Source: an uncultured Methanomassiliicoccales archaeon (GTDB lineage Archaea; Thermoplasmatota; Thermoplasmata; Methanomassiliicoccales; UBA472). Taken from it: a stretch of 64,000 bases of DNA. Where the stretch lies: contig OW818644.1 of the NCBI GenBank assembly GCA_942492955.1, positions 770,327-834,326 of the forward strand, given 5' to 3'. Positions 5,057 to 33,374 of the stretch are shown piece after piece (position 1 is the first letter of the stretch; every line of letters starts with the position of its first letter). A model generated the notes under the pieces. The model saw nothing but the letters and a program-made list of their open reading frames with translations. It made no database searches and had not been told where the DNA came from. The position numbers and the translations under genes are program-made.

Positions 5057-5058
5057 AA

Positions 5059-6418: not shown

Positions 6419-6955
6419 GTGGGGTTAAGATTGGTGGGGGATACATACGAATTGGACATGGATAGTGCAATACTAGACGCGATCGGACGCCTTAATAAGC
6501 AGGACAAGGCGGAAGTTGCGCATTTTATCATAGATCCGGTAGTGCTGTTCATTCTGGGGGCGACATCGAGGAGAAACCTGACCGTGAGCGAAATGGCACC
6601 GTCTATCAACCTGCCTATCGCCACCTGCTACAAGCTGGTCTACCAGCTGGAGGCATTCGGTCTGATGTCGAAGGTGGGAGTGTCTAGAACGTCTGGAAGG
6701 GGAAAGGCATCGACCTACACCTCGATCCTGAAGTCATTGAACCTGGAGCTCAGGAACGGCACCATATTGATGACGGTCACCTGGAAGAACAATCAGCGTG
6801 AGTCGTTCCGTCGTGAACTGAACACGGAGCCGACTAACACCGCATTCTCGCTTTTAGTCAGCCCGCTGGACCAGGCGATCGCCGGAGAATACATAGAGCC
6901 ACGTTACCGCGGCTATCTGAACCAACCGGTCAAGAACGTCGGTGCCACCGAGTAA
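6419..6955 (+). CDS. putative winged-helix transcriptional regulator
   Basis: 178-aa ORF with a GTG start; an in-frame ATG at 6458 is an alternative. The HTH-like segment LTVSEMAPSINLPIATCYKLVYQLEAFGLM resembles ArsR/TrmB-type wHTH. Confidence 0.5.
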   Translation: MGLRLVGDTYELDMDSAILDAIGRLNKQDKAEVAHFIIDPVVLFILGATSRRNLTVSEMAPSINLPIATCYKLVYQLEAFGLMSKVGVSRTSGRGKASTYTSILKSLNLELRNGTILMTVTWKNNQRESFRRELNTEPTNTAFSLLVSPLDQAIAGEYIEPRYRGYLNQPVKNVGATE

Positions 6956-7023: not shown

Positions 7024-7821
7024 TCAGAACCGATAGCCTGCCTGGAATCCTAGTTCTTTGATCATTGACACTAACAGGTAGCGATGTTTGAGCGCATCCA
7101 GCATACCGCGCGACTTTGACTTGGAACGATGGAATGTATCGATCTTCATCTGATCGCGGTAGGCCCGCGTCCTTCTCCCGATGGACCTCTGATGTCTGTA
7201 AAGCTCCCGCGCGTTGCTTTCCTCGTTATGCCATACTGCGTCAGGAACGATGATCGAATCCGTGCTCTTCTCCCGCACCTTCGAGTACACCAGCGAGTCC
7301 TCGTAACTTCCCATGGTCGGGATCATTGATTCGGGGATCTGGGAATAGGCATATTCCAGCAGGGGTCGTTTGAATAGGCGAGGGTAGACATTGTAGCCCT
7401 CACCCCCGTTCATAGCCTCGGTCTCGAAGAACAGCCTCTGCCGGTCAAGCTCCCGTTGGACCCAATTCGAGGGTTTGTAGGAGCGTTCTCCCAGGACGAT
7501 CATGTCATGCTTCTGCATCTGCTCGATACAGCGGGAAAGGGCGCCTGGTTGCATCACCTGATCAGCGTCGATGTGCATGATCCAATCACCCTTCGAGGCT
7601 TTCAGACCCTCAACCCGGGCACCGAGAAGCCTTCCAGGATAATCGACCACTTTGGCGCCGAATCCGGCCGCGATCTCTTTGGTCCGGTCCTTAGAGAACG
7701 AATCGACCAGGATCACCTCGATATTCTTGTATTCCTGCTCTTTGACGGACTGTAATGCCATGCCGATATGCCTCTCCTCGTTGAGCGATGGTATGATGAT
7801 GGAGATGAGCCCGATTTCCAT
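7024..7821 (-). CDS. family 2 glycosyltransferase
   Basis: N-terminal ISIIIPSLNEERHIGMALQSVKEQEYKNIEVILVDSFSKDRT and the DxD-like HIDADQ are typical of the GT2 (GT-A) fold. Confidence 0.85.
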   Translation of the reverse strand: MEIGLISIIIPSLNEERHIGMALQSVKEQEYKNIEVILVDSFSKDRTKEIAAGFGAKVVDYPGRLLGARVEGLKASKGDWIMHIDADQVMQPGALSRCIEQMQKHDMIVLGERSYKPSNWVQRELDRQRLFFETEAMNGGEGYNVYPRLFKRPLLEYAYSQIPESMIPTMGSYEDSLVYSKVREKSTDSIIVPDAVWHNEESNARELYRHQRSIGRRTRAYRDQMKIDTFHRSKSKSRGMLDALKHRYLLVSMIKELGFQAGYRF

Positions 7822-7948
7822 GTGATGACCGCATGGCCAGTATCCAAACCTAGATAAATAGAAATATCGGTCATCTCGTCCAGAAAGATGTCCAGGCCAT
7901 GCCCGATCGGTGTCCGAGGGCGCGGAAAATGGAAGGGAAGAAAGTCAT

Positions 7949-8941
7949 ATGATCATCACCAGGACCCCTTACCGGATCAGTTTCGTCGGTGGCGGCTCCG
8001 ACATGGAATCGTTCTATGAGAAGCATCAGGGAGCGGTTCTCAGCTCCACCATCAACAAGTTCGTCTACATCTCATCACATCATTTCTTCGAGGAGGAAAG
8101 CATCCGCCTGAAGTACTCTAAGAACGAGACTGTCAAGTCGATCGCCGATATCCAGCATCCCCTGTTCCGGGAAGCGCTGTCCCAGTTCGGGGTGAAAGGG
8201 TCATTGGAGATGAGCTCAAATGGAGACGTGCCCGCAGGGACCGGGCTCGGATCGTCATCCGCCTTCACCGTGGGGCTTCTGCACAATCTCTACGTGCGCG
8301 AGGGCAAGTATGCGACCAAGGCCCGTCTGGCCGAGGAGGCCTGCGCTATCGAGATCGATCGCTTGAAGGAACCCATCGGCAAACAGGACCACTACGCCGC
8401 GGCCTTCGGCGGTCTTAACATCATCCGCTTCAATACCAATGGGACCGTAGAGGTAGAACCGATCCATCTCAACCAGAGAACGAACCGGGAATTGCAGACG
8501 AATCTGCTGATGTTCTACACTGGCACCCAAAGGAGCGCATCCACCATCCTGCAGGAGCAGAAGGACAACATCGCCGCGATGAAGAAGTCAGATGTACTGA
8601 TCAAGATGGTCGATCTGGTCTGGGAACTGCGAGACAGTCTGTTCAGCGGGGACCTCTCGTCTTTCGGAGAGATCCTGGACCGCAATTGGGCGTTGAAACA
8701 GAGACTGGCGAACGGCATCGGAACGGACCAGGTCACCTCGATGTATCGCAGAGGCATTGCGGCCGGAGCCTTGGGAGGCAAACTTTTGGGTGCTGGTGGG
8801 GGCGGATTCCTGCTCTTCTACTGCGAAAAAGAAAAGCAGGAGAGGTTGAGGGCGGAGCTCGCGGCACATCAGGAACTGAGGTTCAAGTTCGAGAACGAGG
8901 GTTCAAAGTTAGTTTTCGTAGGAGATGAGTATGAAGGCTGA
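7949..8941 (+). CDS. hddA: GHMP-family sugar kinase, D-glycero-D-manno-heptose 7-phosphate kinase (HddA)-like
   Basis: MIITRTPYRISFVGGGSDMESFY resembles the HddA/GHMP N-terminus. GHMP motif PAGTGLGSSSAF is present, and the C-terminal GAGGGGFLLFY. ATG at 7949 was verified behind GGAAGGGAAG. The ORF-track GTG is at 7910. Confidence 0.8.
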   Translation: MIITRTPYRISFVGGGSDMESFYEKHQGAVLSSTINKFVYISSHHFFEEESIRLKYSKNETVKSIADIQHPLFREALSQFGVKGSLEMSSNGDVPAGTGLGSSSAFTVGLLHNLYVREGKYATKARLAEEACAIEIDRLKEPIGKQDHYAAAFGGLNIIRFNTNGTVEVEPIHLNQRTNRELQTNLLMFYTGTQRSASTILQEQKDNIAAMKKSDVLIKMVDLVWELRDSLFSGDLSSFGEILDRNWALKQRLANGIGTDQVTSMYRRGIAAGALGGKLLGAGGGGFLLFYCEKEKQERLRAELAAHQELRFKFENEGSKLVFVGDEYEG

Positions 8942-9512
8942 TGGGATCGACCGATATCTTGGGGAGGTCAAATCGACCTTGGACAATCTCGATCGCGAAG
9001 ATCTGGAAAGGTTCGCCGATGCGCTCATGAAGGCGTACTCGGAAGGGAACCAGATATTCGTCTTCGGGAATGGCGGCAGCGGTTCCACGGCCTCCCATTT
9101 CTGCGGAGATTTCCTGAAAGGAGTATCATACGGTTTGGAAAAGAGGTTCCGGTTCCTCTGCCTGAACGACAACATCCCTGCTTTACTGGCCATCGCCAAC
9201 GATATCAGTTACGAGGATGTCTTCGTGGAGCAATTGAAGAATCACATGCGCAAGGACGACCTGGTGATCGGGATCTCCGGCAGCGGTAACTCGATGAACG
9301 TGGTCAAGGCGCTGCAGTACGCCAACGACAACGGCGCGGTCACCGTGGCCATGTGCGGCTTTGACGGGGGCAGGATCATCGGCATGGCTGACATCCATAT
9401 ACACGCCCGGATAACGAACATGGAGGTCACCGAGGACGTGCACCTGATCGCCATTCACTGCCTAAAAACGATTTTGAAGGAAAGACTTCAGAACCAGCAG
9501 ATTCAGTGCTGA
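8925..9512 (+). CDS. gmhA: phosphoheptose isomerase (SIS domain), GmhA-like
   Basis: SIS-domain motifs FVFGNGGSGSTASHFCGDF and ISGSGNS. Overlaps the hddA-like gene by 17 nt (alternative ATG at 8931). Confidence 0.85.
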   Translation: MSMKADGIDRYLGEVKSTLDNLDREDLERFADALMKAYSEGNQIFVFGNGGSGSTASHFCGDFLKGVSYGLEKRFRFLCLNDNIPALLAIANDISYEDVFVEQLKNHMRKDDLVIGISGSGNSMNVVKALQYANDNGAVTVAMCGFDGGRIIGMADIHIHARITNMEVTEDVHLIAIHCLKTILKERLQNQQIQC

Positions 9513-9540
9513 ACGATAACAATCCATAGGAGACACAAAC

Positions 9541-10488
9541 TTGAAGATCATAGTGACCGGCGGCGCTGGGTTCATTGGTAGCCATCTATGCGATGCGTTG
9601 TTAGAGAAAGGGCATGAGGTCCTCTGCGTAGACGATCTGAGCCTCGGTTCAGAGGAGAACATCAGACATCTCCTAGGGAACAAGGATTTCCACTTTTACC
9701 GGATGGACGTCACGAAGGGGAACGAATTCTCTAACCTGATGAGGGACAAGCAGATAGGGTGCGTCTTCCACCTGGCGGCCAACTCCGACATCCAGCAAGG
9801 AGCGGCCAACCCGTCTATAGACCTGGAACGCACGTTCATGACAACTTACAAGGTCCTGGAGGCAATGAGGCTGAACGGCGTGCGAGACCTGGTGTTCTCC
9901 TCCACTTCTGCCATATACGGCGAGAAGGACAGGGCTATCTCCGAGGACGAGGGTCCACTGCAGCCCATATCACTGTACGGGGCGGCCAAGCTTTGCTCCG
10001 AATCCTATATTTCGGCCTATTGCCACAACTTCGGGATCAAGGCCTGGATATGCCGGTTCCCTAACGTAGTGGGTGACCGGAGCACGCACGGCGTGATATA
10101 TGACTTCGTCAAGAAGCTGAACAAGGACCCGAGCCGGCTCGAGATCTTGGGCAACGGCAAGCAGCACAAGCCCTACATCTACGTCAAGGATCTGGTCTCC
10201 GGCATCCTCTTCTGCTGGGAAAACTCCGGGGAAACGCTGAACGTCTACAACCTCGGGGTGGACTCAGAAACGACGGTCACGGAAATAGCCGAGATAGTGG
10301 TGGACGAGATGGGGCTCAAGGACATCGATTTCGTCTACACTGGAGGGGACAGGGGCTGGAAGGGCGACGTACCGTATTTCGCGTATGACCTGAATAAGGT
10401 GCATGCCCTCGGATGGTCGGCGTCGAGGACCTCGAACGAAGCGGTGCGTCACTCGGTCCGGATGTTCCTGGCAAATCGCAAGAAGTGA
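9541..10488 (+). CDS. NAD-dependent nucleotide-sugar epimerase/dehydratase (extended SDR)
   Basis: Rossmann motif [26 protein letters not shown] and catalytic YGAAK (YxxxK). TTG start behind a GGAG element. Confidence 0.85.
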   Translation: MKIIVTGGAGFIGSHLCDALLEKGHEVLCVDDLSLGSEENIRHLLGNKDFHFYRMDVTKGNEFSNLMRDKQIGCVFHLAANSDIQQGAANPSIDLERTFMTTYKVLEAMRLNGVRDLVFSSTSAIYGEKDRAISEDEGPLQPISLYGAAKLCSESYISAYCHNFGIKAWICRFPNVVGDRSTHGVIYDFVKKLNKDPSRLEILGNGKQHKPYIYVKDLVSGILFCWENSGETLNVYNLGVDSETTVTEIAEIVVDEMGLKDIDFVYTGGDRGWKGDVPYFAYDLNKVHALGWSASRTSNEAVRHSVRMFLANRKK

Positions 10489-10505
10489 CCTCAGTATGTA
10501 TGGGA

Positions 10506-11753
10506 TCAACCGGACGGAACCGCGGGTATCCGTCCCCGGGATTCGATTTCCATGTAGGTCCAGCTGACCAAGGTGGTCCCGCCGAAAGCCACCAGCATGT
10601 CCAACGCGATGGTTACCAGGGAATCGTGGAACAGCACGATCAGGGCCACCTGAAGTGCGGTGAAGAACACCATAATCGCCAAATAGACCTTCGAGTCGAT
10701 CGCCAGACCGTAGTTCATGAACAGGTTGGCGATGCCCAGCAAGGCCATGGACATTCCCAGGATGCCCATCCCGGCCGCCGCCCCGATGTATTTGTCTCCC
10801 CCATAGAGAAGCCGAAGGATCTCGGCCGGGAACAGGAAGAAGGTGAGGACCACCACGCCGGTCACGGCAAGGGCGATCAGGACGGAGAGGCGCATCATGA
10901 CCACCGTACCGGCCTTCTTGGCATGCGCCGCCGCCAACTTCGGATAGATCACGATATTGATGGATGAGGGCAGGAACAGGATTATCTTGCTCAGCATCGA
11001 ACACACCGCGTAGAGCCCGGCGGTGTTAGGATCGAGGTACTGCCTGGCCAAGATAACATCAATATTGACCATTATGGTCAGACAGGCGACGGCGATGATC
11101 ACATGCAGGACCGACCCACGCATTTTCGTCAACTCCGATTTTGGCATGGGGGTGGGTCTGAGGCGGATGACATCCCGGATCGAATAGATGGCCACGATCA
11201 GGGCGAGAATCAGACCTATCAGGACGCCCCCCAAGGCCCCCATGATGCCAAACCCGATGACGACCAAGATTATGCCGGTTCCGAGTTTCACCACTGGCCC
11301 GGTGATGCCATAGAACGCATTGTAACGGAACCTCTCCAAACCCTGACTGGTTCCATAACCGACCGGAGAGATAAGCGAGATGATGACCCCGGCCATCAGC
11401 AGGAAGACTGGCAATGTCGATGAAAGATAGATGAAACTGGATATGCTGGGCAAGAGGAGATACATTCCCAGGGCAATGGCGGCCCCGGTCATCGACCCGT
11501 ATACCACCATTTTCCGGACCAACCAGGAGATCTCGTTCTGTCTCCCCTCGACGTTTAGGCGAGAAGACTGCTTGACCAGGAATGTGCTCATCACTTGGGC
11601 CGGCGCTATGGCCAAATAGAACATGGACAACAATGCAGAAAGCTCAGAGAAGCTGGCCGGCGTCATCGTGCCGCTCATGTAGTATTGGAAAAGATAATCG
11701 CATCCTCCACCCAATAGAGTGGCCACTGCCATCATCAATGCCGGCTTGGCCAT
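10506..11753 (-). CDS. Wzx-like polysaccharide/oligosaccharide flippase (MOP superfamily)
   Basis: Polytopic membrane protein. Paralogous to the 30436-31689 product: MAKPALMMAVATLLGGGCDYLFQYYM vs LAKPALLMFVATVIAGGCNYVYQIMM. ATG at 11753 was verified in frame. The ORF-track start at 12017 adds an 88-aa non-membrane, Arg-rich leader that overlaps the divergent gene. Confidence 0.8.
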   Translation of the reverse strand: MAKPALMMAVATLLGGGCDYLFQYYMSGTMTPASFSELSALLSMFYLAIAPAQVMSTFLVKQSSRLNVEGRQNEISWLVRKMVVYGSMTGAAIALGMYLLLPSISSFIYLSSTLPVFLLMAGVIISLISPVGYGTSQGLERFRYNAFYGITGPVVKLGTGIILVVIGFGIMGALGGVLIGLILALIVAIYSIRDVIRLRPTPMPKSELTKMRGSVLHVIIAVACLTIMVNIDVILARQYLDPNTAGLYAVCSMLSKIILFLPSSINIVIYPKLAAAHAKKAGTVVMMRLSVLIALAVTGVVVLTFFLFPAEILRLLYGGDKYIGAAAGMGILGMSMALLGIANLFMNYGLAIDSKVYLAIMVFFTALQVALIVLFHDSLVTIALDMLVAFGGTTLVSWTYMEIESRGRIPAVPSG

Positions 11754-12034
11754 GTCCCCGACCCCCCGTGGGCGATGCAACGGTCGGGATAGGGTATTGA
11801 ATATTATTAATCGATGCAGAGAGACCAGTGGATCCAAGCGCACGATATGGCTCAAAGAACGTTGACGGCCGATTCTGGCTTCCAAGAACGATCTCAGATT
11901 CGGCGAGAGCCCGGAGTATTCATCGGCTGATGGCGCAGGCTTATTGTCCCATGCATCGGATCGCAGGACCTCCCGCCTCCTCAAGGAATATTGATTTATC
12001 CCTGGCAAGCGCTCCACGTGGTGTCGGTGAGCAT

Positions 12035-12853
12035 TTGAAGGTCACGAAGCGATCCGGAGAAATCGAAGAGTTCGACCGTTCCAAGACCAAGATCGCGGTC
12101 ATGCGAGCAGGAACCTCGCCAGATGAGGCTGATGACATCATCAATCGGCTCATGCCAAGGCTCTATGAAGGCATCACCACTGAGGAGATCTACCGTCAGA
12201 TCCGAGGGATGCTCAATGCCCGAAGTGCCGCCCGCTATGGTCTGAAGAAGTCGATCCTAGCCCTGGGACCGGACGGACGCAACTTCGAGACCTTGGTCTT
12301 CCGTCTCTTTCAGGCGATGGGGTACGATGCAAAAGTGAGGCAACTGGTCGACGGACGTTGCCTGACCCATGAGGTGGACGTCATGATGGAGAAGGACGGC
12401 AAGCACTTCATGGTGGAATGCAAGTTCCATAATTCCCTGTCGATCAAATGCGCCATCCAGACCGCATTGTACACCTATGGAAGGTTCCTTGATGTGGATG
12501 CCGGAAGCGACCTCGAATGCCCCTATCTGGTCACCAACACCCGTTTCTCCAGTGAGGTGGTGAAGTACGCAGAATGCATCTGCATGAGGCTGATCGGATG
12601 GAAACAACCAGAAAAGGGCGGTCTTGAGGAGCTCATCGAACGGTACCATTTGTATCCGGTCACCATGCTGGAACTTAAGAGATCAGAGATCAGGATGCTC
12701 CTGGAGAAGGATATTGTCCTGGTGGCCGACGTTCTGGAAAGAAAGGATGATGTCATCAGGTCATTGGGTCGGGACTCTGCCTCGAATGCCTTCCATGCGG
12801 CGGAGATGCTCGGTTTCGTCGGACCGGAGAATCGGACCGCGGGAAAGAACTGA
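12035..12853 (+). CDS. ATP-cone domain fused to a PD-(D/E)xK (Mrr-like restriction endonuclease fold) domain
   Basis: From TTG at 12035 the protein begins (M)KVTKRSGEIEEFDRSKTKIAVMRAG...ITTEEIYRQI, an ATP-cone-like N-terminus. It continues FETLVFRLFQAMGY...HEVDVMMEKDGKHFMVECKF, with D...ExK nuclease motifs. The ORF track starts at 11828 with a low-complexity leader; alternative ATGs lie at 11930 and 11951. Confidence 0.7.
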   Translation: MKVTKRSGEIEEFDRSKTKIAVMRAGTSPDEADDIINRLMPRLYEGITTEEIYRQIRGMLNARSAARYGLKKSILALGPDGRNFETLVFRLFQAMGYDAKVRQLVDGRCLTHEVDVMMEKDGKHFMVECKFHNSLSIKCAIQTALYTYGRFLDVDAGSDLECPYLVTNTRFSSEVVKYAECICMRLIGWKQPEKGGLEELIERYHLYPVTMLELKRSEIRMLLEKDIVLVADVLERKDDVIRSLGRDSASNAFHAAEMLGFVGPENRTAGKN

Positions 12854-12871: not shown

Positions 12872-13978
12872 CTACTCGCTGACCCGAGCCCGATATCCAT
12901 CTATCGCATCCTTGTAGATGTCGAGGTATCGCTCCGACACTTGCTGCCAGGAGATCAATTTGTCACTGAGGGGTCCGACCTTCATGCCCCCTCCGATCGC
13001 TTTCTCGATCAGGGCGGCCACCTCCGTGGCGTCTGGGGGATATTCAACCCCAAAACACCCAGGTTCAGACGTGAACTCGGTGAGTGCCGACGTTCTAGCC
13101 ACGATGCATGGAGTGCCGGACTTCAGCGCCTCAGCGATCACCAAGCCGTAGGCTTCCAGGGCAGAGAGCAAGACCAGGACGCCGGCTTTATGGTACTCTA
13201 CGTTCAGCTGTTCATCGCTGACTCCCTCTAACCATTCCACTTGCCCGTCCAGACCAAGATCGTGTGCGGACTTGACAAGAGAGTCCTTCTCTGGCCCGGT
13301 GCCGACGATGCGGAGCCGGATGACCTTACCCCGACCCTTAAGAACGGACATCGCGGAAAGGATGTGGTCCACTCCCTTGTATTTCACCAGCCTTCCCACG
13401 TAGAGGATCGATCCTTCCCTCGGCACCTCCACTTTCTGGAGATCCATTCCTCCGTTGGGCACTATCACGATACTATCATCGAGAAGATGGAAATCATTCT
13501 GGACCAAGTTCTTCTCGAAGTTCGAAACGCAGATGTTCTTTTCCGACCAATGGTAGATGTTGGCGCCGTAGACCCGATAGACGCGGAACAGAAGGTCTCG
13601 CTTCCTATTTTGCCCATGCCCATGGTAATGTGTCGTAAAAACGAAGGGAAGACCCTGCGAACGGCAATAGAACGCTGCCATCAACGCCTGCGGCGAGTGA
13701 AAGTTATGGATGTTGACAATATCGTAATGCTCCGGAGTGGCGTTCTTGACCAGCCACTCCCTCATTCCCAGATGAATTCCCATCCGTGCAAGACCCTGCC
13801 TGCGGAAGCGTATCACGTGAACCCCGTTGATGACCTCATCGGAATCCTTTAAGAGGTCCATGCAGACCACGGTGCACTGATGCCCAGCAAGAACATGACG
13901 TTCGGCGAGCGTGCGGACCAGGGTCTCCACTCCGCCTATGACCGGATGGTAGTATTTGGTGACCACTAGGATACGCAT
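12872..13978 (-). CDS. family 4 (group 1) glycosyltransferase
   Basis: N-terminal MRILVVTKYYHPVIGGVETLV and a C-terminal GT-B region with EAYGLVIAEALKSGTPCIV (E-x7-E-like). Confidence 0.85.
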   Translation of the reverse strand: MRILVVTKYYHPVIGGVETLVRTLAERHVLAGHQCTVVCMDLLKDSDEVINGVHVIRFRRQGLARMGIHLGMREWLVKNATPEHYDIVNIHNFHSPQALMAAFYCRSQGLPFVFTTHYHGHGQNRKRDLLFRVYRVYGANIYHWSEKNICVSNFEKNLVQNDFHLLDDSIVIVPNGGMDLQKVEVPREGSILYVGRLVKYKGVDHILSAMSVLKGRGKVIRLRIVGTGPEKDSLVKSAHDLGLDGQVEWLEGVSDEQLNVEYHKAGVLVLLSALEAYGLVIAEALKSGTPCIVARTSALTEFTSEPGCFGVEYPPDATEVAALIEKAIGGGMKVGPLSDKLISWQQVSERYLDIYKDAIDGYRARVSE

Positions 13979-14293
13979 ATTCCCCTCAACACCGCGATGC
14001 CTGAATGGGTATGGAAGACAGGTCCAAAAATGTATGGGATAGAAGATATTCAGAATATCGCATAGCTCCGCTCGACTGATTCGCGCAAATCCCTGCGGGT
14101 CTCATGGGCACCAAAACATCAGACATGTCAAACTAAACACCTATCGGCGGACATCGTAATGATTCAGTATCAGCACCAAGATCGATTCGTATCAAGCTGC
14201 CCGATGTCGCCATTTGTGAGTAATAAATTTGCGCGAAAATTCACTTTCCTAAGATTTGACCGGGGCACTGGATCGAATGGGAAAGGATCTCGG

Positions 14294-15118
14294 TTATTTT
14301 CTACCTTTGAAGAGGGCGGACAATGCACCCAGGCCAGATGCGATATATCTGCTGGCTTGATATACCGAAAAACCGACAGCCATGTCTGGGTGTCTGTAGA
14401 ATTCCCTCCAACCCCGTAGGATTGCCGGTCTTATCACACTGATTTGCTTCATCCCTCTTTCCTCATTCTTATCCACGAATGATTTAATGGATTTTCCGTA
14501 ATAATAGTGCTTCTTTAGGACGTCGACAAGATTCGTTGGTTCTCCAAGATGCAATTCTGTTGATTTCGTCATACCGATCTTGAAATTCTTCTTCATTATC
14601 CGATTGTGCAGATCGTAGTCCTCGCCTGCCACTAACTTCTCGTCGAACCCTCCAACCTCTTGGAGAACCTTTCTCGAGAAAAATCTCGCCGCAACGTTAA
14701 GATCGTCATCGACGTAAAAATTCCTTTCAAAGTTCCTCACCTTCGACCAAAAGCTCACGGTCGGATCTGAAATATTGGGTATGCACACGGCATCAAAACC
14801 TGATTCGCATAAGGCCACAGCCTCTGAAACGACATTCTTGTCCACTACGAAATCAGAGTCTACGCGGTACAAGTACTCCCCCTTGGCCTTGCTGAATCCG
14901 AAATTGATCTGAGTGCTCCTTTCAGGTCCAATCTGGTAAATGGTATCGGTGAATCGTTTTGCTATCTCTAAAGTGGCATCTTTGGAAAAATTATCAACTA
15001 ATATTATCTCTATGTACGGATGGGTCTGTTCTTTTAATGATCTCAAGCACCTTTCAAGGTATTTTGAAGAATTCAGCGTGGGTACGATAACGGATACTAA
15101 TTTTCCAGGAGCTTCCAT
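14294..15118 (-). CDS. family 2 glycosyltransferase
   Basis: VSVIVPTLNSSKYLERCLRSLKEQTHPYIEIILVDNFSKDAT and RVDSDF match GT2 motifs. Confidence 0.85.
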   Translation of the reverse strand: MEAPGKLVSVIVPTLNSSKYLERCLRSLKEQTHPYIEIILVDNFSKDATLEIAKRFTDTIYQIGPERSTQINFGFSKAKGEYLYRVDSDFVVDKNVVSEAVALCESGFDAVCIPNISDPTVSFWSKVRNFERNFYVDDDLNVAARFFSRKVLQEVGGFDEKLVAGEDYDLHNRIMKKNFKIGMTKSTELHLGEPTNLVDVLKKHYYYGKSIKSFVDKNEERGMKQISVIRPAILRGWREFYRHPDMAVGFSVYQASRYIASGLGALSALFKGRK

Positions 15119-15370
15119 AGATAGATCACTAGCAGCTTCATTCCTGAATCCAGGGCCGCCATAAAAGAATTGTGGTGAACCGTGGTGTGGTGGTATTCTG
15201 ATAGATCACTCTGAAATGACCGATTGTAACTGCCTAGTTGCCGATTTCAGTTGGACAATTTGGTACGCCTCCCGATAAATGGGATTACACTATTTTTACA
15301 AATTCGAGCGCCCAGTTTTTCATATGGTTATTATATTCGAAATTGGTTGGAGTACAGGAAAGGAATTGAA

Positions 15371-16240
15371 ATGATTGACTCATTGCCGATTTTCGATAAG
15401 ATAACCTGGCTTCCGTACCATTATTTCAACAAAATCAGAAGTAACGATAACAAGACCATTTCTTTGGACATGTCCAAGTATGGAATAAATACAAAATTCA
15501 AAATGCGGCTACCGGAGAAGGACGATGGCCTGTCGCAACAACTGACCGTTTATGAATTCAGAGAGCCGATCAACTGCAGACACTATTGCGAATTCATTAC
15601 CGCCGAAGACAGACTATTGGACATCGGGTCGAATGTCGGGTTCTTTCCAATTTTAGGAGGTCGGGCATCCAAGATCATATGCGTGGAGCCTCTGGAAGAA
15701 TTGATCCCGTTGCTGATCGAGAATATTCGAGCGAACAACCTTTCCGACAAGTGTGAAATAATCCAAGCGGCAGTGGGAAACAAACAAACGCTACATCTGG
15801 AAGCCAACCATCAGATGAATCTATCCAGAATCGTAGATGGGGCGAGCGGTAAGACCAGAGAGGTCAAGGGTGTGACCCTCAGGGAACTTGTGTCCAAATA
15901 TGACACTAATGTCATCAGAATGGATGTGGAAGGATATGAGCACGAAATCCTGTACAACCAAATACCTGAGAAGATCAATAAAATATCACTAGAATTTCAC
16001 ACGGGGCTCATGGGAAGGGAAAAATCAGCCGAATTGTTGGAATACTTCAAGAAAGAAGGATTTGTGTTCAGTTACTTCATTGAAGATGTTCCATTGAGAC
16101 TGTATCCATTCCTTCATGTCCTAAGAAATGCAGATCTGTTTCATCCGATATCATATGCTATACAGAATCTTGATGGCGATGAGGTTAGCAGAAGGATATT
16201 GACGGGGAGATCCCTCAAATATCTATTCTTATCAAGATGA
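15371..16240 (+). CDS. FkbM-family methyltransferase
   Basis: LLDIGSNVGFFPILGG (SAM motif) and VIRMDVEGYEHEIL (FkbM hallmark). ATG at 15371 was verified behind AGGAA. The ORF-track TTG is at 15251. Confidence 0.75.
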   Translation: MIDSLPIFDKITWLPYHYFNKIRSNDNKTISLDMSKYGINTKFKMRLPEKDDGLSQQLTVYEFREPINCRHYCEFITAEDRLLDIGSNVGFFPILGGRASKIICVEPLEELIPLLIENIRANNLSDKCEIIQAAVGNKQTLHLEANHQMNLSRIVDGASGKTREVKGVTLRELVSKYDTNVIRMDVEGYEHEILYNQIPEKINKISLEFHTGLMGREKSAELLEYFKKEGFVFSYFIEDVPLRLYPFLHVLRNADLFHPISYAIQNLDGDEVSRRILTGRSLKYLFLSR

Positions 16241-16342
16241 TGGACATTTAATCAAATGATTCACTTGATGATGCCAGTCGCAATGTTCGAAGTTCAATCT
16301 GTCATTTTAGAAGAATGAAATGTGATGGTTGTTCCATGGTAT

Positions 16343-16687
16343 CTAAAGTCCGCCCCTCGGACGATCTCTCTGCCAGAATTTAATTATGACATTCGGGATT
16401 ATCCGGAAATGAGAAGGCTCCTTGTTGGACTTGGCGATAGATGCCGGTCGAATGTTGGGAGATACCAGATCAAGGCATATGAGGATGAAACCGGTCACGA
16501 AACAGTAGAATGCCAAGATCCCTACAAACCTAGCATTATCTGGTGATTTTGTTGCCGAGAAACCAGCAGACAGTATGAGCAGGAATATTGAAACGACTAT
16601 CGATAATCTTGAATCGACCCTGAACCCATACCTTAGAATGACCAGGAGAATTATTATTGAACACCCGATGATTGCTAAGAAGTCCAA
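16343..16687 (-). CDS. hypothetical small polytopic membrane protein
   Basis: 114-aa ORF with a TTG start and three hydrophobic helices. Located inside the glycan cluster. No family recognised. Confidence 0.4.
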   Translation of the reverse strand: MDFLAIIGCSIIILLVILRYGFRVDSRLSIVVSIFLLILSAGFSATKSPDNARFVGILAFYCFVTGFILICLDLVSPNIRPASIAKSNKEPSHFRIIPNVIIKFWQRDRPRGGL

Positions 16688-16959
16688 GGTTCACACACCT
16701 TCAACAGTGTTTCCGTATGATGCATCCAGAATATATGGGTTTATGTAAAATCAATTTCGGGCAAATTCATTATATTGATAACAACAACGCATTAAACCGA
16801 CTTTGAATGAAGTTGCTGTTTCTATCCGATAAGGTGGGTTCAAGGATGGTGGTGAGGAACCCGGGACAAACAAAGTTCGAATCACGCTTGATTTCAACCA
16901 TGCCTGGACTGAAGCTGGGAACTGATCTCGATCGCCCCATGATCTTCAACGAATCGAAC

Positions 16960-18141
16960 CTATTTGCCCAAGTCACCATTCCATTCGGGCCAAGCTTTCC
17001 TAATCAGTTCAAGATCGTCCATGGCCACCACCGACCAGTCATATCTTCCTACGAAATTGATCCCCTTCTCAGAAATGACCTTTCTGCCACTCTCATCATC
17101 CAGTAGATGGGCTACTGTTGAAGCGAAGATATCACGATTCGCGATCGGGATCCAACTCACATTGTTCCCCCACACCGGACGAATTTTTGGCAAATCATAT
17201 GCTACTACGGGGAGGCCAGATGCGAGCGCTTCTCCGATCACGATTCCCCAATTCTCCCCGTATGAGGGAAGAACAAAGACCTTGCTAGATCTCAGGATGG
17301 AGTTCTTCCTTTGGAAATCCGAAATCCTTCCCAGTAACACGATATTTGTCTCTAGACCCTCCTTCCTGATTCTGCCCTTTAGCTCATCCTCGATCGCCTC
17401 CGAGCCAGAGCCAATAATTGCCAATCTGGCATTTGGCTTGACCTTGCAGACAGATTTCCATATCTCAACCAGATCGAAGATGCCCTTTTCCTGAGCGAAA
17501 CGGCCGATGAAAACGCCATCGAATCCGTTCTCCGGAGGCGACTCAATTTTTCTTATGCCAGCATAGTCAACACCACAAGCAACCGTTTCGACCTTTTCCT
17601 TTGGTATTCCGATCTTGTTGACTATATCCTCTTTAGTGGGATTGGAAACCGCGAGTATCACATCTGCCTTCCTTTTTGCTATAAAGTATCCGATCCGATC
17701 GTTCAGATAGAACAGGATTGAGTTGACGTAGGGCACTCCGGGTCTCTTGATTGGAATGACGTGATGGGCGACTACTGCCAACCGTGAGCTGTGGTTTCGG
17801 GACCGGATGAGTGCTCCCGGGAGAACATCATACAACAGCTCAGTTGTTGAGTATATCAGACCTTCAAATCGCTTCAAGTCGTCTGGGATATTGAACGAAT
17901 TGAAGACCCGGTCGACATAATCGATGATGCCAGTTCCTGTGCCTGTCGGCAGAACGTGAAAAATGGCCTCTAGTTTAAGTTGAGTGCATAGTTCCAGGCC
18001 AGCCTTCTGGGTCAGAACGTGTACCTCAATCCCTGATTCCTTCCAGACTTTTGCCACCGATATCCATCTGACATCTCCTCCACTGATGTTCACAACTCCA
18101 TTTGAGACGTCGATTCCGTGGGCGATGAATAGGACTTTCAT
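16960..18141 (-). CDS. family 4 (group 1) glycosyltransferase
   Basis: MKVLFIAHGIDVSNG..., a GT-B C-terminal half with VLPSYGENWGIVIGEALASGLPVV, and a TAG stop. Confidence 0.85.
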   Translation of the reverse strand: MKVLFIAHGIDVSNGVVNISGGDVRWISVAKVWKESGIEVHVLTQKAGLELCTQLKLEAIFHVLPTGTGTGIIDYVDRVFNSFNIPDDLKRFEGLIYSTTELLYDVLPGALIRSRNHSSRLAVVAHHVIPIKRPGVPYVNSILFYLNDRIGYFIAKRKADVILAVSNPTKEDIVNKIGIPKEKVETVACGVDYAGIRKIESPPENGFDGVFIGRFAQEKGIFDLVEIWKSVCKVKPNARLAIIGSGSEAIEDELKGRIRKEGLETNIVLLGRISDFQRKNSILRSSKVFVLPSYGENWGIVIGEALASGLPVVAYDLPKIRPVWGNNVSWIPIANRDIFASTVAHLLDDESGRKVISEKGINFVGRYDWSVVAMDDLELIRKAWPEWNGDLGK

Positions 18142-18330
18142 GTTATGCTCTCTTTGCGAATGTCGTCTGACGGTATCACCGATTTAATCCAGCGTATCCA
18201 CTGATAATCACTTATAGGCTTCGATTTTTGGAAACCGAAGCCAGGATCACTGAATTCTCGACCCGCCACCAAAAAGGAGCTCGGAGGTCATTCTTCCTAA
18301 GCATTAGACGGATCGGAAATAGCTTTCTTA

Positions 18331-21300
18331 CTATGGTTGGCCCTTTGACACCCTGATCTCTCTATAGCGGTTCACAACCACGTATATGACGATGCATGAC
18401 AGGACGGTCAAGGCGATCGCTCGCCCCCAATCGAATTGTTCCTGCAGACGGAACCTGATCTCCAAATGCACCGGGCCGGTCTGATTTATCCAGAACCCGT
18501 TCATTGCAGAGTAGGAGTGTATGGGCTTGATTTCCTGGCCGTTAGCATAGAGGACCCAATTACTGTTGAAAGGCATTGAAAGGCTGACCAGGGAGGGCGA
18601 GGCTAAATACACGTCGGCTGAGAACGCGACGTCCGATCCAGTGATATTTGAGACCTTGTTCAAGTCCTTGACATCGAAGATGCTCTGATGGCCCTCATTT
18701 GAGTAGACGTAGACACCTCTGACGGTCGACAAGCTCGTCGCGTAAATTCTCAGAATATGCTGTCCTTGGTTCAGATAGAGGGAGGCGTAGTAGTTTCCAT
18801 CATCGCCTAGTGTCAAATGACGAATGACACCGTCAACCGTCAGTATCAGCCCTTCACCCCCATTCAGCATGATTCGGTAGGAATCGTTCCTTAGCAGGTT
18901 TAAGTCGAGGGACGCGCTCCTCCCTCTCTTCAGAACAAGTTCGCTCTGATTGTTCCGCAGGTTCTCCGAGCTGGACAGTGCCTCGCTATCGAAGTAGTGG
19001 ACAAGAGGAACGTCCGCCAGCGTCTGATATGCCTGTTGGATCTGACTATCATTCATGAGCAATATGGAATCGATGTAATTCGCCGGCAGACTGCTCGTAA
19101 TATTGATCGTACTTGACCCATCGATCGGTCCCAGGTCTACCCATTTCATGTAGTGCTCGGTCATATTGGTATTTAATGTTGCGAACTCCACACCATTATT
19201 TGAAAAACTGATCTCTCCCCCTTTGGGCCAATATAATACCTTGACCATCAGATGGACATCGCCAGTCGACTGGAGTGGGACTGACAGTGTGCTATTAGAG
19301 AGAGTAAATGCGCCATGATGGGTCGTTTCCGCGAAGGTCGCATCGAACCAGAACCACTTCTTTGCATCTATCCACGTTGTAGTTGCACTTGCACCGGATG
19401 TCAGCAGACCAGGCTCGATGATCTTCCCCTCCACGAGTGAAAGGGCATCCATCGGATCATCGTTCGTGAAATAGACGCCTACCTGTTCTTTTCCTTCCAG
19501 AGGAGCGGTTACGTATCCGACGCTGGTCAGATTGATCAGATCGCCAAGCGGGAACAATGACGAGAGATCCGCGCTCCCGTGGACCAAGATGGAGGACGCG
19601 ATGATCATGTCTCCAGATTTGTTATTCAGATATGTCGTGAAGGTGGAACCACGATCGACCTCGTACAAATCCTCCTGATTGGAGATAATCTCCGTCATGT
19701 TCTTTTCATTCCATTTGGCCAATACCTCCGGGTAGCTAGTGGCGCTCTGGTAATACAGGTATCGAGAATGAAAATCATCCCTAACGACGACATATTTGAA
19801 TCCGAACGGGGCCAGAACACTGCCGATGTTGGTTGTCGCATTCTTGGTCAATTCGGTTCCTAGGAAAGCGCTCAGCTCACCATAGGGAGACCCATAGGAG
19901 GGTTCGACTGGCAGCGTAGGTTTCGGAGAAAGCTGAAGAAACGGATCCACACCCGCATACTTTAGGTCAGCGTAGTTCACCGGGGACATGAAAGGGTACC
20001 ATAAAATGCGATATTCTCCGGGGTCGTTATCGAACCCGGCCACCGTCTTGACATAATCGGAATTCAAATTGTATGTTTGGACATAACCATAGAAATTCCC
20101 GGCAATGAGAGGATACCCTGCCGATATGATGAATAGGCTGGCAATAATGACAGCAGGTATGGCGGTCATAATCTCATGCCTAATACCTTTCTCTGGCCAG
20201 CGCAATCTTACCCAAGTTGTCAAGTCCTGCAAGAAGTAGGTCGTCAGAATGACAGCTGGGAATGCCACCAAGAAGATGATGTGCCAGAGTTCTCTGAATA
20301 TGAACAATGGCGTGTATTTGAACAGGAAAATGAAGATTTCGGGCGCAGGGTCGCTCGTGCCCTTGGAAAGGAAGATTCCGATTATCATAACGGCCGCTAA
20401 GGCTATTGTGATGCGGTTCCTACGGAAATATAGGGATGAGATACTGGCAAGCGTTATTATTATGGCCAAATATGCGATGATGATCGGAATTGTGCCAGCA
20501 ATTTCCATCTGCTGATAGCTGTATGATTGGCTTACATACCCCATTAGCCTCATGCTATCCAGCAACGAGGAGGAGTGGGTTATCTCGTGATAGTAAAGAA
20601 GATTCTCGGGGGCGAAATTCGATAAAGAAGCTTGGCTCTGAGATAAGGGCAGAACCCAAGGTAATTGGAACGTGAAGGCGACAAGAAGTATCACAGCGAA
20701 TACTTTGAAATTGGTCCTTAATTTTCCGACATCGGCTATCATGATGACGAACAATAAGAAGGCACCCATGACGATGAACTGAAGCTGTGTGGCCATCAGC
20801 GCAAGTATCACACCCGCGATCAGGGCCTTTCTAAACTGGATACCTTTCTTTTCAGCCCTCGAAGCCTCGAGATAATAAACAATGAGCAAAGGGGCAATGG
20901 CATATGCCAGCAAATAGTATCCATGACCTGCTATCGATCGTGTCCAAATGATGGGCGTAAAGATGTAAAGGATTCCCATTACGATTCTAAAAGGGTATCT
21001 TATCCCCAAGGACTCTCCAAGGCGGTACATGCTCCATCCGCTCAAGGAAATGAATAGGAAGAGCAGACCTTTGGTGACGATCTCGCCGCCTAGGCCAGAG
21101 AATGGTATTAGTAACAACCGAAAGAACCAGTCCGATGGATATAGCTTATATCCACCATCAGGGCTGAAAATATAGTTACCGTCGTTAGCATAGCTTGAGA
21201 CCATGTCGGGTAACGGGCCGAGGAACCAATCGTGATAAAGACCAATGGTTCCGGGACTGAACAAAATTCCTCTTAAAATAAATAATGCCGCTAAAATGAA

Positions 21301-21471
21301 TACGACAGGAGGCAGAACCCGAAGAACTACATCAAGCCTGGCGGCACCGATTTTGTTGCGAATGACCTCGGATATTGAGCCTTCCTTCATTGATTTGCTA
21401 TTACATCTCAAAAGTAAATCTCGAAGCAAATCCAGTTCCCTTCGCAACCAATTAGTCTGAGAATGGGTCAA
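18331..21471 (-). CDS. very large polytopic membrane protein, candidate GT-C-fold glycosyltransferase/polymerase
   Basis: 1046 aa. The first ~470 aa hold many TM helices. A large non-membrane domain with many N-x-S/T sequons follows, and then a final TM helix AIALTVLSCIVIYVVV. TTG start, TAG stop. The functional call rests only on architecture and context. Confidence 0.6.
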   Translation of the reverse strand: MTHSQTNWLRRELDLLRDLLLRCNSKSMKEGSISEVIRNKIGAARLDVVLRVLPPVVFILAALFILRGILFSPGTIGLYHDWFLGPLPDMVSSYANDGNYIFSPDGGYKLYPSDWFFRLLLIPFSGLGGEIVTKGLLFLFISLSGWSMYRLGESLGIRYPFRIVMGILYIFTPIIWTRSIAGHGYYLLAYAIAPLLIVYYLEASRAEKKGIQFRKALIAGVILALMATQLQFIVMGAFLLFVIMIADVGKLRTNFKVFAVILLVAFTFQLPWVLPLSQSQASLSNFAPENLLYYHEITHSSSLLDSMRLMGYVSQSYSYQQMEIAGTIPIIIAYLAIIITLASISSLYFRRNRITIALAAVMIIGIFLSKGTSDPAPEIFIFLFKYTPLFIFRELWHIIFLVAFPAVILTTYFLQDLTTWVRLRWPEKGIRHEIMTAIPAVIIASLFIISAGYPLIAGNFYGYVQTYNLNSDYVKTVAGFDNDPGEYRILWYPFMSPVNYADLKYAGVDPFLQLSPKPTLPVEPSYGSPYGELSAFLGTELTKNATTNIGSVLAPFGFKYVVVRDDFHSRYLYYQSATSYPEVLAKWNEKNMTEIISNQEDLYEVDRGSTFTTYLNNKSGDMIIASSILVHGSADLSSLFPLGDLINLTSVGYVTAPLEGKEQVGVYFTNDDPMDALSLVEGKIIEPGLLTSGASATTTWIDAKKWFWFDATFAETTHHGAFTLSNSTLSVPLQSTGDVHLMVKVLYWPKGGEISFSNNGVEFATLNTNMTEHYMKWVDLGPIDGSSTINITSSLPANYIDSILLMNDSQIQQAYQTLADVPLVHYFDSEALSSSENLRNNQSELVLKRGRSASLDLNLLRNDSYRIMLNGGEGLILTVDGVIRHLTLGDDGNYYASLYLNQGQHILRIYATSLSTVRGVYVYSNEGHQSIFDVKDLNKVSNITGSDVAFSADVYLASPSLVSLSMPFNSNWVLYANGQEIKPIHSYSAMNGFWINQTGPVHLEIRFRLQEQFDWGRAIALTVLSCIVIYVVVNRYREIRVSKGQP

Positions 21472-21702
21472 TACTAATAAAATGTTTCTGGGTGAATTCG
21501 ACCTATCTTATTTTATGTCCAGCCTTCGTGCCGGCTATCAAGGCTGCGTTGCTCTGAGGCCTACACAGGAACCACATATTTCGTACGCGGGTGACGTGTT
21601 TAAGAATAACTTGCTTCATATCCTGAGAACATCTGGATTATCTGTTTCAATAAAATTAAACACCCGAACGGCTCAAATAGTCATTCATCCGTGTATTTTT
21701 CA

Positions 21703-25008: not shown

Positions 25009-25079
25009 ATTTCGATCATGATTTGGAAATTTGCATCGATAGAGTCTAACTCACGTATCCATTTCTTGACATGAACGTA

Positions 25080-33337: not shown

Positions 33338-33374
33338 TCACCGAATTTACTGTCGAATAATATAAGAGATGATG

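Follow-up and report, generated by a model that had tools for sequence, protein, structure and literature searches.

What does a nuclease do behind an ATP-cone, and how did its gene come to lie amid glycan genes? Both questions are raised by one gene in a stretch of 64,000 nucleotides (hereafter the window) from an uncultured Methanomassiliicoccales archaeon. The ATP-cone is the textbook allosteric switch of ribonucleotide reductases (RNRs), and to our knowledge the domain is otherwise known almost only from these enzymes. In all characterised ATP-cones that we know of, those of RNRs and of NrdR, nucleotide occupancy alters the oligomeric or conformational state and hence the effector. The initial annotation described an ATP-cone joined to an Mrr-like nuclease, considered ATP/dATP-gated cleavage attractive for an anti-virus or stress-triggered system, and knew of no experimental characterisation of such an architecture. 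Literature searches agree with this last statement: they returned no published study of an ATP-cone-nuclease fusion and no nuclease experiment on any member of the family.

The Gene and Its Start Codon

The gene and the signals in front of it are located as follows (all positions are those of the window).

11986..11999, plus strand: promoter element GAATATTGATTTAT, TATA-box-like, conserved among related loci
12026..12032, plus strand: Shine-Dalgarno-like GGTGAGC, its 3' end 2 nt before the start codon
12035..12853, plus strand: nuclease gene with a TTG start, coding for a protein of 272 aa, stop codon included in the coordinates

The core of the promoter element, GATTTAT (11993-11999), is invariant in six of six related loci, 36-42 nt 5' of the start codon, and is unchanged although the upstream neighbours vary between these loci. 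This comparison shows a conserved predicted promoter that belongs to the nuclease gene itself, with the GATTTAT-containing element as its putative archaeal TATA box. GGTG is invariant as well (6/6), and the whole GGTGAGC heptamer is kept in five of the six. The related loci use TTG as the start codon, except for ATG in L003, and L012 carries an in-frame TAA 5' of the point equivalent to the TTG. Because of the GATTTAT box, the GGTGAGC motif and this upstream stop, we regard TTG at 12035 as the true start, which bears out the original assignment. The frame is open across 11828-12853, and a GTG at 11828 was considered as the start of a longer N-terminus; we reject it in view of the conserved promoter, Shine-Dalgarno-like motif and start codon together with the stop in L012. 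The dN/dS of the coding sequence relative to close relatives is 0.11-0.17, and both modules, cone and nuclease, are under purifying selection. These values and the conservation of residues described below exclude a chance open reading frame or a pseudogene.

Domain Composition of the Protein

Three domains are distinguished in the protein.

12035..12262, plus strand: ATP-cone domain, residues 1 to ~76 (Pfam PF03477, family profile, Foldseek)
12266..12604, plus strand: PD-(D/E)xK nuclease (Mrr_cat / AF1548 N-domain), residues 78 to ~190 (Pfam PF04471, homology to 1Y88)
12287-12289, 12377-12379, 12416-12418 and 12422-12424, plus strand: codons of the catalytic residues E85, D115, E128 and K130
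12617..12808, plus strand: C-terminal helix-hairpin-helix-type (HhH-type) domain (AF1548-like_C), residues ~195-258, aligned to 1Y88 through residue 249

The ATP-cone at the N-terminus, proposed from the sequence at the outset, is confirmed by Pfam, by the family profile and by Foldseek. PF03477 matches residues 1-53 with 37.3 bits (gathering cut-off 25.8). In an AlphaFold2 model of the 272-residue protein (pLDDT 94.3, pTM 0.89), the cone consists of a β-hairpin (strands 2-4 and 10-12) followed by a helical bundle (helices 15-24, 29-42, 49-59 and 62-75), all with pLDDT above 92. Foldseek aligns 79-81 residues to the NrdR cone with an rmsd of 2.0-2.9 Å, and also matches the class I RNR R1 cones 7agj and 8vhp. 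Positions 3-72 of the family profile align with the cones of NrdR, NrdA and NrdD at E-values of 0.008-0.46. When the cone alone was compared with PDB sequences by phmmer, designed helical-repeat proteins were the only matches; NrdR and the RNRs were reached with the family profile. No NCBIfam family model matched the protein, and a sub-threshold RNR match in this collection came from the cone only.

In NrdR, residues V48, K50, R51, E56, F58 and K62 contact the adenine nucleotide, and their mutation abolishes nucleotide binding (PMC9110341). Residues V3, K5, R6, E11, F13 and K17 of the present protein have the same spacing, and G8 is also placed within this NrdR-like pattern. Among 149 representatives with no more than 50% identity, conservation amounts to 99% for K5, 97% for G8, 78% for E11, 98% for F/Y13 and 100% for K/R17. 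R6 is 98% conserved within the clade of the studied protein, and about 90% of diverse family members have replaced this Arg, mostly by Ala or Ser. The Arg beside the conserved Lys of NrdR contacts the inner-site nucleotide (PMC9110341). Because the Arg next to K5 is mostly lost family-wide, the ligand may differ from ATP/dATP. For the studied protein, in which the NrdR-type contact residues are present, gating by ATP/dATP fits the sequence and is plausible.

The cones of RNRs (NrdA, NrdB, NrdD) and of NrdR belong to the same Pfam domain and have the same hairpin-plus-helical-bundle fold, and the K-R...E.F...K pattern corresponds to the NrdR contacts. By analogy, the fusion may follow the same logic, in which adenine-nucleotide occupancy sets the oligomeric state and thereby the attached effector. 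In contrast to these systems, the sensor of the fusion is attached to a nuclease, where RNRs have a reductase and NrdR a Zn-ribbon DNA binder. Its cone is some 8 residues shorter than the NrdR cone, and the Arg that follows the invariant Lys, though retained in the studied clade, is lost in most of the family. The Zn-ribbon that precedes the cone in NrdR is absent; the fusion protein begins directly with the cone.

The nuclease domain is matched by PF04471 (Mrr_cat) over residues 80-180 with 25.9 bits (cut-off 21), and both profiles, cone and Mrr_cat, score above their curated cut-offs. The motif HEVDVMMEKDGKHFMVECKF, quoted in the initial annotation, is found in the protein. Residues E85, D115, E128 and K130 are 99-100% conserved among the 149 representatives, and over more than 260 sequences these four and E113, R150, D153 and N168 are equally 99-100% conserved. 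D115, E128 and K130 are equivalent to D38, E51 and K53 of 1Y88, which are predicted to be catalytic (PMC1874628, PMC1821046). With the AlphaFold2 model as query, Foldseek returned 1Y88, the nuclease domains of MspJI/AspBHI and those of Can2/Card1. Pfam, homology to 1Y88, Foldseek and residue conservation concur in an Mrr-like fold with an intact D...ExK signature, as originally proposed, and alignment shows the predicted Mg2+-type catalytic residues to be intact. The best reading of the protein is a DNA endonuclease gated by an adenine nucleotide, with a housekeeping or stress role, where we infer the gating and the substrate from the sequence.

PF22357 (AF1548-like_C) matches residues 207-245 with 20.6 bits, slightly under its cut-off of 23.9. 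Modelled alone (pLDDT 85.6), the C-terminal domain resembles the RNAP alpha-CTD, the Rad51/Dmc1 N-domain and Hel308 domain 5 in a fold search (TM 0.6-0.7, rmsd ~1.9 Å over 58 residues), with weak E-values; its fold is also similar to the Dpo4 thumb. On the basis of these models, the HhH-like domain is likely to be a non-specific DNA-binding module. The description of this region as a helical tail of about 90 aa was right as to its helical nature, but the region is made up of a folded HhH-type domain and a final stretch of ~14 residues that is disordered and little conserved.

Nearest Known Proteins

The closest relative of known structure is AF1548 from Archaeoglobus fulgidus (PDB 1Y88; Mrr_cat plus AF1548-like_C), an uncharacterised structural-genomics protein. 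The two are homologous over residues 87-249 (phmmer E = 1.5e-38, profile E = 2.5e-63) and share the PD-(D/E)xK core and the C-terminal helical domain (Foldseek E = 8e-17, TM 0.81 on target). AF1548 differs in that the deposited 1Y88 chain (199 aa) begins near the position that corresponds to residue 78-87, without an ATP-cone, and in that it has Gln at the position of H112 of the family. Homologs from Archaeoglobaceae MAGs (L051, L060, L065) align from residue 1. Published work on AF1548 consists of computational predictions that it is a nuclease (PMC1874628, PMC1821046, PMC3424549).

A survey of PD-(D/E)xK proteins groups 1Y88 with Mrr_cat (PMC3424549), the catalytic domain family of the Mrr/type IV restriction endonucleases (COG1715). 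The fusion differs from these enzymes in being a conserved backbone gene without defence-island context and without an N-terminal modified-DNA-binding domain: Pfam finds the ATP-cone and no further domain on the N-terminal side of the nuclease. Can2, Card1 and Cdn1, the CARF-nuclease fusions of type III CRISPR systems, also join a small-molecule sensor to a PD-(D/E)xK nuclease (Foldseek E 2e-3 to 5e-2; weak PADLOC matches). This likeness is one of analogy only, since the present protein has an ATP-cone in place of CARF and no CRISPR or cyclase neighbours.

Genomic Setting

The gene order sufC-sufBD-wHTH-nuclease-Mrp/ParA-NitroFeMoCo is collinear and common to distant Methanomassiliicoccales. 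In the studied genome, it is interrupted on both sides of the nuclease gene.

6419..6955, plus strand: putative winged-helix regulator (wHTH), 178 aa, backbone neighbour by synteny
7024..11762, unstranded block: upstream glycan-gene insertion with GT2, GHMP kinase, SIS, epimerase and flippase (Pfam)
~10506-11762, minus strand: Polysacc_synt flippase (Pfam)
12872-13978, minus strand: GT4 (Pfam)
12872..34540, unstranded block: downstream glycan-gene island with GT4, GT2, FkbM methyltransferase, GDP-mannose dehydratases and others

The nuclease gene belongs to the backbone, and the glycan genes on its two sides form two blocks that were inserted in this genus. The upstream block, which splits the wHTH gene from the nuclease gene, is missing at the equivalent position in L005, L006 and L008, where the backbone is otherwise collinear. 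The downstream island, whose GC content drops to 0.42-0.48 from ~14 kb on, stands between the nuclease gene and Mrp/ParA, the next gene of the backbone (homology at 34668-35507). The initial annotation had this the other way around, with the nuclease inserted against the strand of a glycan cluster; it is the glycan genes themselves (~7.0-11.8 kb and ~12.9-34.5 kb) that were inserted into a shared backbone. The gene was also seen as a lone plus-strand gene. It is indeed flanked by a flippase and a GT4 on the minus strand, but genes of the cluster at 7910-10488 are on the plus strand, too.

In 26 Methanomassiliicoccales loci, the wHTH gene immediately precedes the nuclease gene (position -1) and is read in the same direction, with gaps of mostly 20-120 nt. 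The wHTH protein has no Pfam match, and its profile weakly matches MarR/ArsR/PH1932 regulators. Most MAGs contain a single copy of the nuclease gene, which is a long-standing chromosome resident and a vertically inherited core gene in Methanomassiliicoccales.

Distribution and Gene Company in Other Phyla

Clustering at 50% identity gives the family at least 373 clusters, from archaea as well as bacteria, when counted at E < 1e-30; at E < 1e-3 the number of clusters is 952. Nearly all members are 260-290 aa long, with alignments that begin at residues 1-4. At least 324 species have the gene, culturable ones of Roseivirga, Pontibacter (homolog WP_237151220) and Methanomassiliicoccus among them. 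Members are found in Methanomassiliicoccales, DPANN archaea, Archaeoglobaceae, Nitrososphaera, CPR bacteria, Bacteroidota and Chlamydiota, and a genome scan, with patterns taken from an 8-sequence alignment, showed the family scattered over distant phyla. This patchy spread over distant phyla implies that horizontal transfer has occurred. Patchy distribution is also typical of defence genes.

In CPR bacteria, copper or cation P-type ATPases, typed by Pfam alone as HMBD or Cation_ATPase_N/C, share compact operons with the gene. Their order is CsoR, the nuclease, a protein with two transmembrane segments (2-TM) and a copper P-type ATPase, in reading frames whose stop and start codons overlap. 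In Bacteroidota and Chlamydiota, the nuclease is accompanied by MBL/β-CASP, thymidine-phosphorylase-family and ribose-phosphate pyrophosphokinase (PRPP synthetase) proteins, a trio that is induced by microoxia in Bradyrhizobium (PMC6515984). The operon company varies by phylum, with no single physiological theme.

Proposed Function and Alternatives

We propose that the protein is a stand-alone, chromosomally inherited Mrr-type PD-(D/E)xK nuclease of the AF1548 branch, with an N-terminal ATP-cone, which would be gated by adenylates or dATP and serve a housekeeping or stress function. We assign this reading a probability of roughly 0.55. The C-terminal HhH domain would bind double-stranded DNA regardless of its sequence, and cleavage would take place at the PD-(D/E)xK site. 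When ATP, dATP or perhaps ADP/AMP occupies the cone, the oligomeric or conformational state would change and thereby switch cleavage on or off. Most likely, the enzyme would tie the processing of DNA or nucleic acids to the adenylate or dATP status of the cell. Candidate roles are to turn over and salvage nucleic acids, or to process damage during energy or metal stress.

A large conserved family, with hundreds of clusters at 50% identity, joins an RNR-type sensor to an intact nuclease. If the cone gates cleavage, ATP/dATP allostery would extend from dNTP synthesis to DNA degradation, and a function could be assigned to the orphan structure 1Y88. More tentatively, these proteins might form a third functional class of ATP-cone proteins: a DNase set by the adenylate/dATP pool and wired to responses to energy limitation and metal stress, as the microoxia-type MBL module of Bacteroidota/Chlamydiota and the copper-efflux operons of CPR bacteria may suggest. 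Falling ATP would then trigger nucleic-acid degradation that feeds nucleotide salvage or catabolism. We consider this extension possible rather than probable.

The family could instead provide an anti-virus or anti-plasmid nuclease, either type IV/Mrr-like or acting by abortive infection, released when infection disturbs the ATP/dATP pools or an adenine-based second messenger occupies the cone. In its favour, the nuclease domain belongs to Mrr_cat, the Foldseek matches include the ligand-gated nucleases Can2, Card1 and Cdn1, and the NrdR cone also binds c-di-AMP (PMC9110341). PADLOC gave weak matches at the level of domains, to the C-terminal nuclease part of ZorD (7.6e-6) and to CARF_PDDEXK effectors (7e-4), and no full-length match to a defence model. 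The scatter of the family over distant phyla and an integrase near one locus (L007) would also suit such a role. Other observations speak against it. Of 149 genes located one or two positions from a homolog, at ~40 loci outside Methanomassiliicoccales, no single PADLOC family accounts for more than four, and the PADLOC matches are to generic ATPase, radical-SAM or methylase-type models; this survey found no recurrent defence family. Searches of 50,697 phage records and of IMG/VR found no homologs, PHROGs gave nothing significant, and BFVD folds yielded generic matches to Mrr-like nuclease domains and no family member. Two of 72,556 plasmids carry a homolog, both within a metabolic operon. A modified-DNA reader domain and a partner methylase, CRISPR or CBASS gene are absent, and the gene has stable synteny across the order, a mostly single copy per MAG and the low dN/dS given above, while elsewhere it lies in operons for metal transport and nucleotide metabolism. 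The context evidence gives a defence role no support. The anti-virus function suggested at first is not borne out by these data; anti-virus restriction is an unlikely role for the enzyme, and to annotate these genes as "restriction endonuclease" probably misleads.

Two further readings retain the sensor and the DNA-binding part in other capacities. The architecture of XPF, Hef and Mus81 is an ERCC4 nuclease followed by (HhH)2. The present protein likewise has an HhH-type DNA-binding domain behind a nuclease of PD-(D/E)xK fold, and might be a structure-specific nuclease of DNA repair or replication, with the cone linking its activity to dNTP supply. The likeness of the C-terminal domain to Rad51, Hel308 and Dpo4 modules, Y-family polymerase (IMS) genes as neighbours in three loci, an adjacent, divergent Orc1/Cdc6 gene in five Micrarchaeota loci and the vertical inheritance of the gene as a core gene in Methanomassiliicoccales are in keeping with this idea. 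However, neither ERCC4 (at Pfam E <= 1 or among the best 50 Foldseek matches) nor another repair family was matched, and a cone stands in place of the helicase-like domain at the N-terminus. Only Micrarchaeota that are related to each other show the Cdc6 adjacency, which may reflect an inherited order of genes; no repair operon recurs between phyla, and the strongest operon partners are transporters and nucleotide-catabolic enzymes rather than repair genes. We therefore hold a repair function to be rather doubtful. A nucleotide-sensing regulator that binds DNA in the manner of NrdR, with the nuclease fold as a mere scaffold or DNA-binding surface, seems very improbable. An ATP-cone combined with a DNA-binding domain does follow the NrdR logic, and the gene comes after the CsoR repressor in CPR operons and after the wHTH gene in Methanomassiliicoccales, but the protein has neither a Zn-ribbon nor a sequence-specific HTH domain. 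A non-catalytic scaffold would also not be expected to keep catalytic residues that, like E113, R150, D153 and N168, are near-invariant throughout the family.

Genomic Context of the Nuclease Gene

The initial annotation described the ATP-cone nuclease gene as inserted into a glycan cluster, but comparison with homologous loci from other genomes and MAGs (designated by L numbers) shows the reverse. In two close relatives (L001 and L003, 77–84% identity), the order flippase (−), nuclease (+), GT4 (−) is identical to that of the window. In three more distant Methanomassiliicoccales (L005, L006, and L008; 47–54% identity), the nuclease lies immediately behind a same-strand run of sufC, sufBD, and a small wHTH-like gene, and precedes genes for Mrp/ParA and a NitroFeMoCo-domain protein. 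Proteins from these three loci map onto the window as a collinear backbone, and the glycan genes therefore represent two insertions at ~7.0–11.8 kb and ~12.9–34.5 kb. By this comparison the nuclease is an ancestral gene that retained its own promoter, flanked by two inserted glycan blocks.

Features of the window (backbone genes located by mapping of L005, L006, and L008 proteins)
794–1453: backbone methyltransferase
about 1600–2010: backbone glyoxalase
2114–3106: backbone FAD oxidoreductase
4280–5035: backbone sufC
4996–6276: backbone sufBD
6437–6874: backbone wHTH (homology span)
11986–11999 (+): conserved upstream box GAATATTGATTTAT, with the GATTTAT core shared by six loci
12026–12032 (+): Shine-Dalgarno-like GGTGAGC, shared by six loci
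12035–12853 (+): backbone nuclease
12359–12361, 12368–12370, 12428–12430, 12575–12577: codons of the noncatalytic residues C109, H112, H132, C181
18331–21471 (−): large ORF in the glycan island, 1046 aa
34668–35507: backbone Mrp/ParA
35521–35841: backbone NitroFeMoCo
36442–37176: backbone Usp/DUF485
37205–38719: backbone SSF transporter

The reading frame of the nuclease is open over 11828–12853. The TTG start at 12035, previously assumed, finds comparative backing in six related loci that share an invariant GATTTAT box (window copy at 11993–11999), the GGTGAGC motif, and a TTG start behind it (ATG in L003). The related locus L012 contains an in-frame TAA upstream of the conserved start point.

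When neighbors were clustered over 89 loci, 26 of them had the small wHTH gene at position −1 in the same orientation. The window copy (6419–6955, +, 178 aa) represents the most conserved nuclease neighbor in Methanomassiliicoccales, here with ~5 kb of glycan genes between it and the nuclease. This protein has no Pfam match; its family profile weakly matches winged-helix regulators of the MarR/ArsR/PH1932 types (E 0.004–1.5).

The GC content of the downstream glycan island falls from ~0.55 to 0.42–0.48 from about 14 kb on (about 14000–34500), and this region looks like a replaceable surface-glycan cassette. Gene content beyond GT4 varies among the close relatives: L001 resembles the window, and L003 contains DegT, NTP-transferase, and TPP-enzyme genes instead. 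The 1046-aa ORF has no Pfam match at E ≤ 1e-5. In L001, gene calling splits the homologous stretch in two (282 and 738 aa), so that one of the two assemblies contains a miscall, a frameshift, or a fusion.

Domain Architecture and Conservation

The predicted fusion of an ATP-cone to an Mrr-like nuclease was confirmed by several lines of evidence. Within the 272-residue product, Pfam profiles match an ATP-cone at residues 1–53 (37.3 bits, cut-off 25.8) and Mrr_cat at residues 80–180 (25.9 bits, cut-off 21), and residues 87–249 match the crystal structure of the Archaeoglobus fulgidus protein AF1548 (PDB 1Y88, E = 1.5e-38). An AlphaFold2 model computed from 30 family members is confident (pLDDT 94.3, pTM 0.89). 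A Foldseek search with this model finds 1Y88 (E = 8e-17) as well as nuclease domains from MspJI/AspBHI and Can2/Card1/Cdn1; for the sensor part, it finds the ATP-cones of the repressor NrdR and of class I ribonucleotide reductases. The family profile aligns with the cones of NrdR, NrdA, and NrdD with two 4-residue deletions, so that the cone is compact (~75 aa).

The region behind the nuclease, earlier described as a helical tail, is helical and forms a folded domain; only the last ~14 residues are disordered and unconserved. Pfam AF1548-like_C matches residues 207–245 slightly below cut-off (20.6 vs 23.9 bits). Modeled on its own, the domain is folded (pLDDT 85.6) and resembles the RNAP alpha-CTD, the Rad51/Dmc1 N-domain, and Hel308 domain 5 (TM 0.6–0.7, rmsd ~1.9 Å over 58 residues, with weak E-values). 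Because of this likeness we read it as a putative HhH-type DNA-binding module.

Conservation was assessed on 149 representatives with mutual identities of ≤50%. The catalytic residues E85, D115, E128, and K130 are 99–100% conserved, as are E113, R150, D153, N168, and P208. In the cone, K5 (99%), G8 (97%), F/Y13 (98%), K/R17 (100%), and E11 (78%) are spaced as V48, K50, R51, E56, F58, and K62 of NrdR, which touch the bound nucleotides and abolish binding when mutated (PMC9110341). The arginine after the invariant lysine (R6) is 98% conserved in the clade of the window protein; elsewhere in the family, Ala or Ser mostly takes its place. Given this conservation and a dN/dS of 0.11–0.17 relative to close relatives, both modules look functional.

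Outside the catalytic motif, C109, H112, H132, and C181 are 87–95% conserved across the family, and C129 is 77% conserved. A disulfide or a metal site with a structural role is conceivable among these residues. AF1548 contains Gln in place of H112.

Distribution and Operon Contexts

Clustering at 50% identity gives 952 family clusters at E < 1e-3; the stricter limit of E < 1e-30 leaves 373. With few exceptions these are 260–290 aa long and align from residues 1–4. Archaeal GTDB representatives include Methanomassiliicoccales, Micrarchaeota, Iainarchaeota, Archaeoglobaceae, and Nitrososphaera; bacterial ones include many CPR lineages, Bacteroidota, and Gammaproteobacteria, with a further copy on a Chlamydiota plasmid. 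The window gene is typical of this family. The family itself, sizeable and conserved, departs from the way ATP-cones are usually distributed and is readily tested biochemically.

In CPR/Patescibacteria (L056, L067, L070, L075, L080, L083, and L085), the nuclease belongs to a tight same-strand operon of a CsoR-like repressor, the nuclease, an 83-aa two-TM protein, an HMBD P-type ATPase, and DUF6629, in which the nuclease stop and the following start share 4 nt. We read this arrangement as a copper-efflux operon. L070 encodes a P-type ATPase on either side. A second, conserved operon of four genes (L078, L082, L084, and L088, including Bacteroidota genomes, and the plasmid loci L089 from Pontibacter and L090 from Criblamydia) combines the nuclease with an MBL/β-CASP hydrolase, a thymidine-phosphorylase-family protein (~500 aa), and a ribose-phosphate pyrophosphokinase, and may constitute a nucleic-acid or NMP catabolic module. 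The Criblamydia operon adjoins genes for a P-type ATPase, phosphoketolase, glycogen phosphorylase, and acetate kinase. In Bradyrhizobium diazoefficiens, the trio without the nuclease forms a cluster (bll3115–3117) that is switched on under microoxia (PMC6515984). In Micrarchaeota (L042, L046, L047, L050, and L052), the homolog lies between a divergent Orc1/Cdc6-type AAA+ gene and a downstream HGSNAT-family acyltransferase gene, at a site that may be origin-proximal. Such neighborhoods suggest a tie to stress, metal, or nucleotide metabolism, without one single theme.

The parcubacterial locus L056 contains two full-length nuclease copies ~3.7 kb apart, and in one Methanomassiliicoccaceae MAG the gene occurs on two contigs (L040/L041). 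In L040, L041, L044, and L077, the gene is apparently split or truncated, consistent with frameshifts or MAG assembly errors.

Possible Function

To our knowledge, nucleotide occupancy alters the oligomeric or conformational state of every ATP-cone that has been studied. For the present family, the analysis shows that all three domains are present, that the active site is intact and the ligand-contact residues are conserved, and that the gene is under purifying selection and inherited as part of the backbone. The HhH domain would bind duplex DNA without sequence specificity, the PD-(D/E)xK site would cut it with Mg2+, and an adenine nucleotide in the cone would gate cleavage by shifting the oligomeric or conformational state. 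Gating by ATP/dATP is plausible. Since the NrdR cone binds ATP, dATP, ADP, AMP, and c-di-AMP (PMC9110341), the ligand could be any of these, even c-di-AMP. Our leading guess is that the protein ties the processing or turnover of nucleic acids to the cell's energy or dNTP status.

A repair or replication nuclease, with the Orc1/Cdc6 neighbors and the putative DNA-binding module on one side and the metal- and nucleotide-related operons on the other, is a minority possibility. The antiviral role proposed initially is unlikely. For the nuclease itself, PADLOC returned only partial, domain-level matches. Among 149 genes within two positions of a homolog (~40 loci outside Methanomassiliicoccales), no defense family recurs, and every PADLOC family accounts for at most four genes with generic matches. 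Pfam families in this set include E1-E2 P-type ATPases (9), HGSNAT acyltransferases (5), Orc1/Cdc6 (5), and CsoR repressors (4). Homologs are absent from 50,697 phage records and from IMG/VR, and occur on 2 of 72,556 plasmids; together, these sequence surveys point away from defense. That the protein acts as a noncatalytic regulator is very improbable next to the near-invariant active site, even with a cone related to that of the repressor NrdR.

Known Relatives

Both ATP-cone-regulated proteins and Mrr-type nucleases are known kinds of protein, of which this unstudied family is a variant. RefSeq names its members "ATP cone domain-containing protein", and the architecture is thus already on record in databases. 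Consistent with the earlier statement that the fusion lacks experimental characterization, our literature search found no paper that describes or tests it. Structure 1Y88 covers the nuclease and HhH part, and its status as a nuclease was predicted computationally only, in papers that make no mention of an ATP-cone (PMC1821046, PMC1874628, PMC3424549). The deposited chain of AF1548, the only solved relative, lacks the cone and begins near the cone–nuclease junction, whereas homologs from Archaeoglobaceae MAGs (L051, L060, and L065) carry the cone, with alignments that begin at residue 1. Possibly the start of the A. fulgidus gene was annotated too far downstream.
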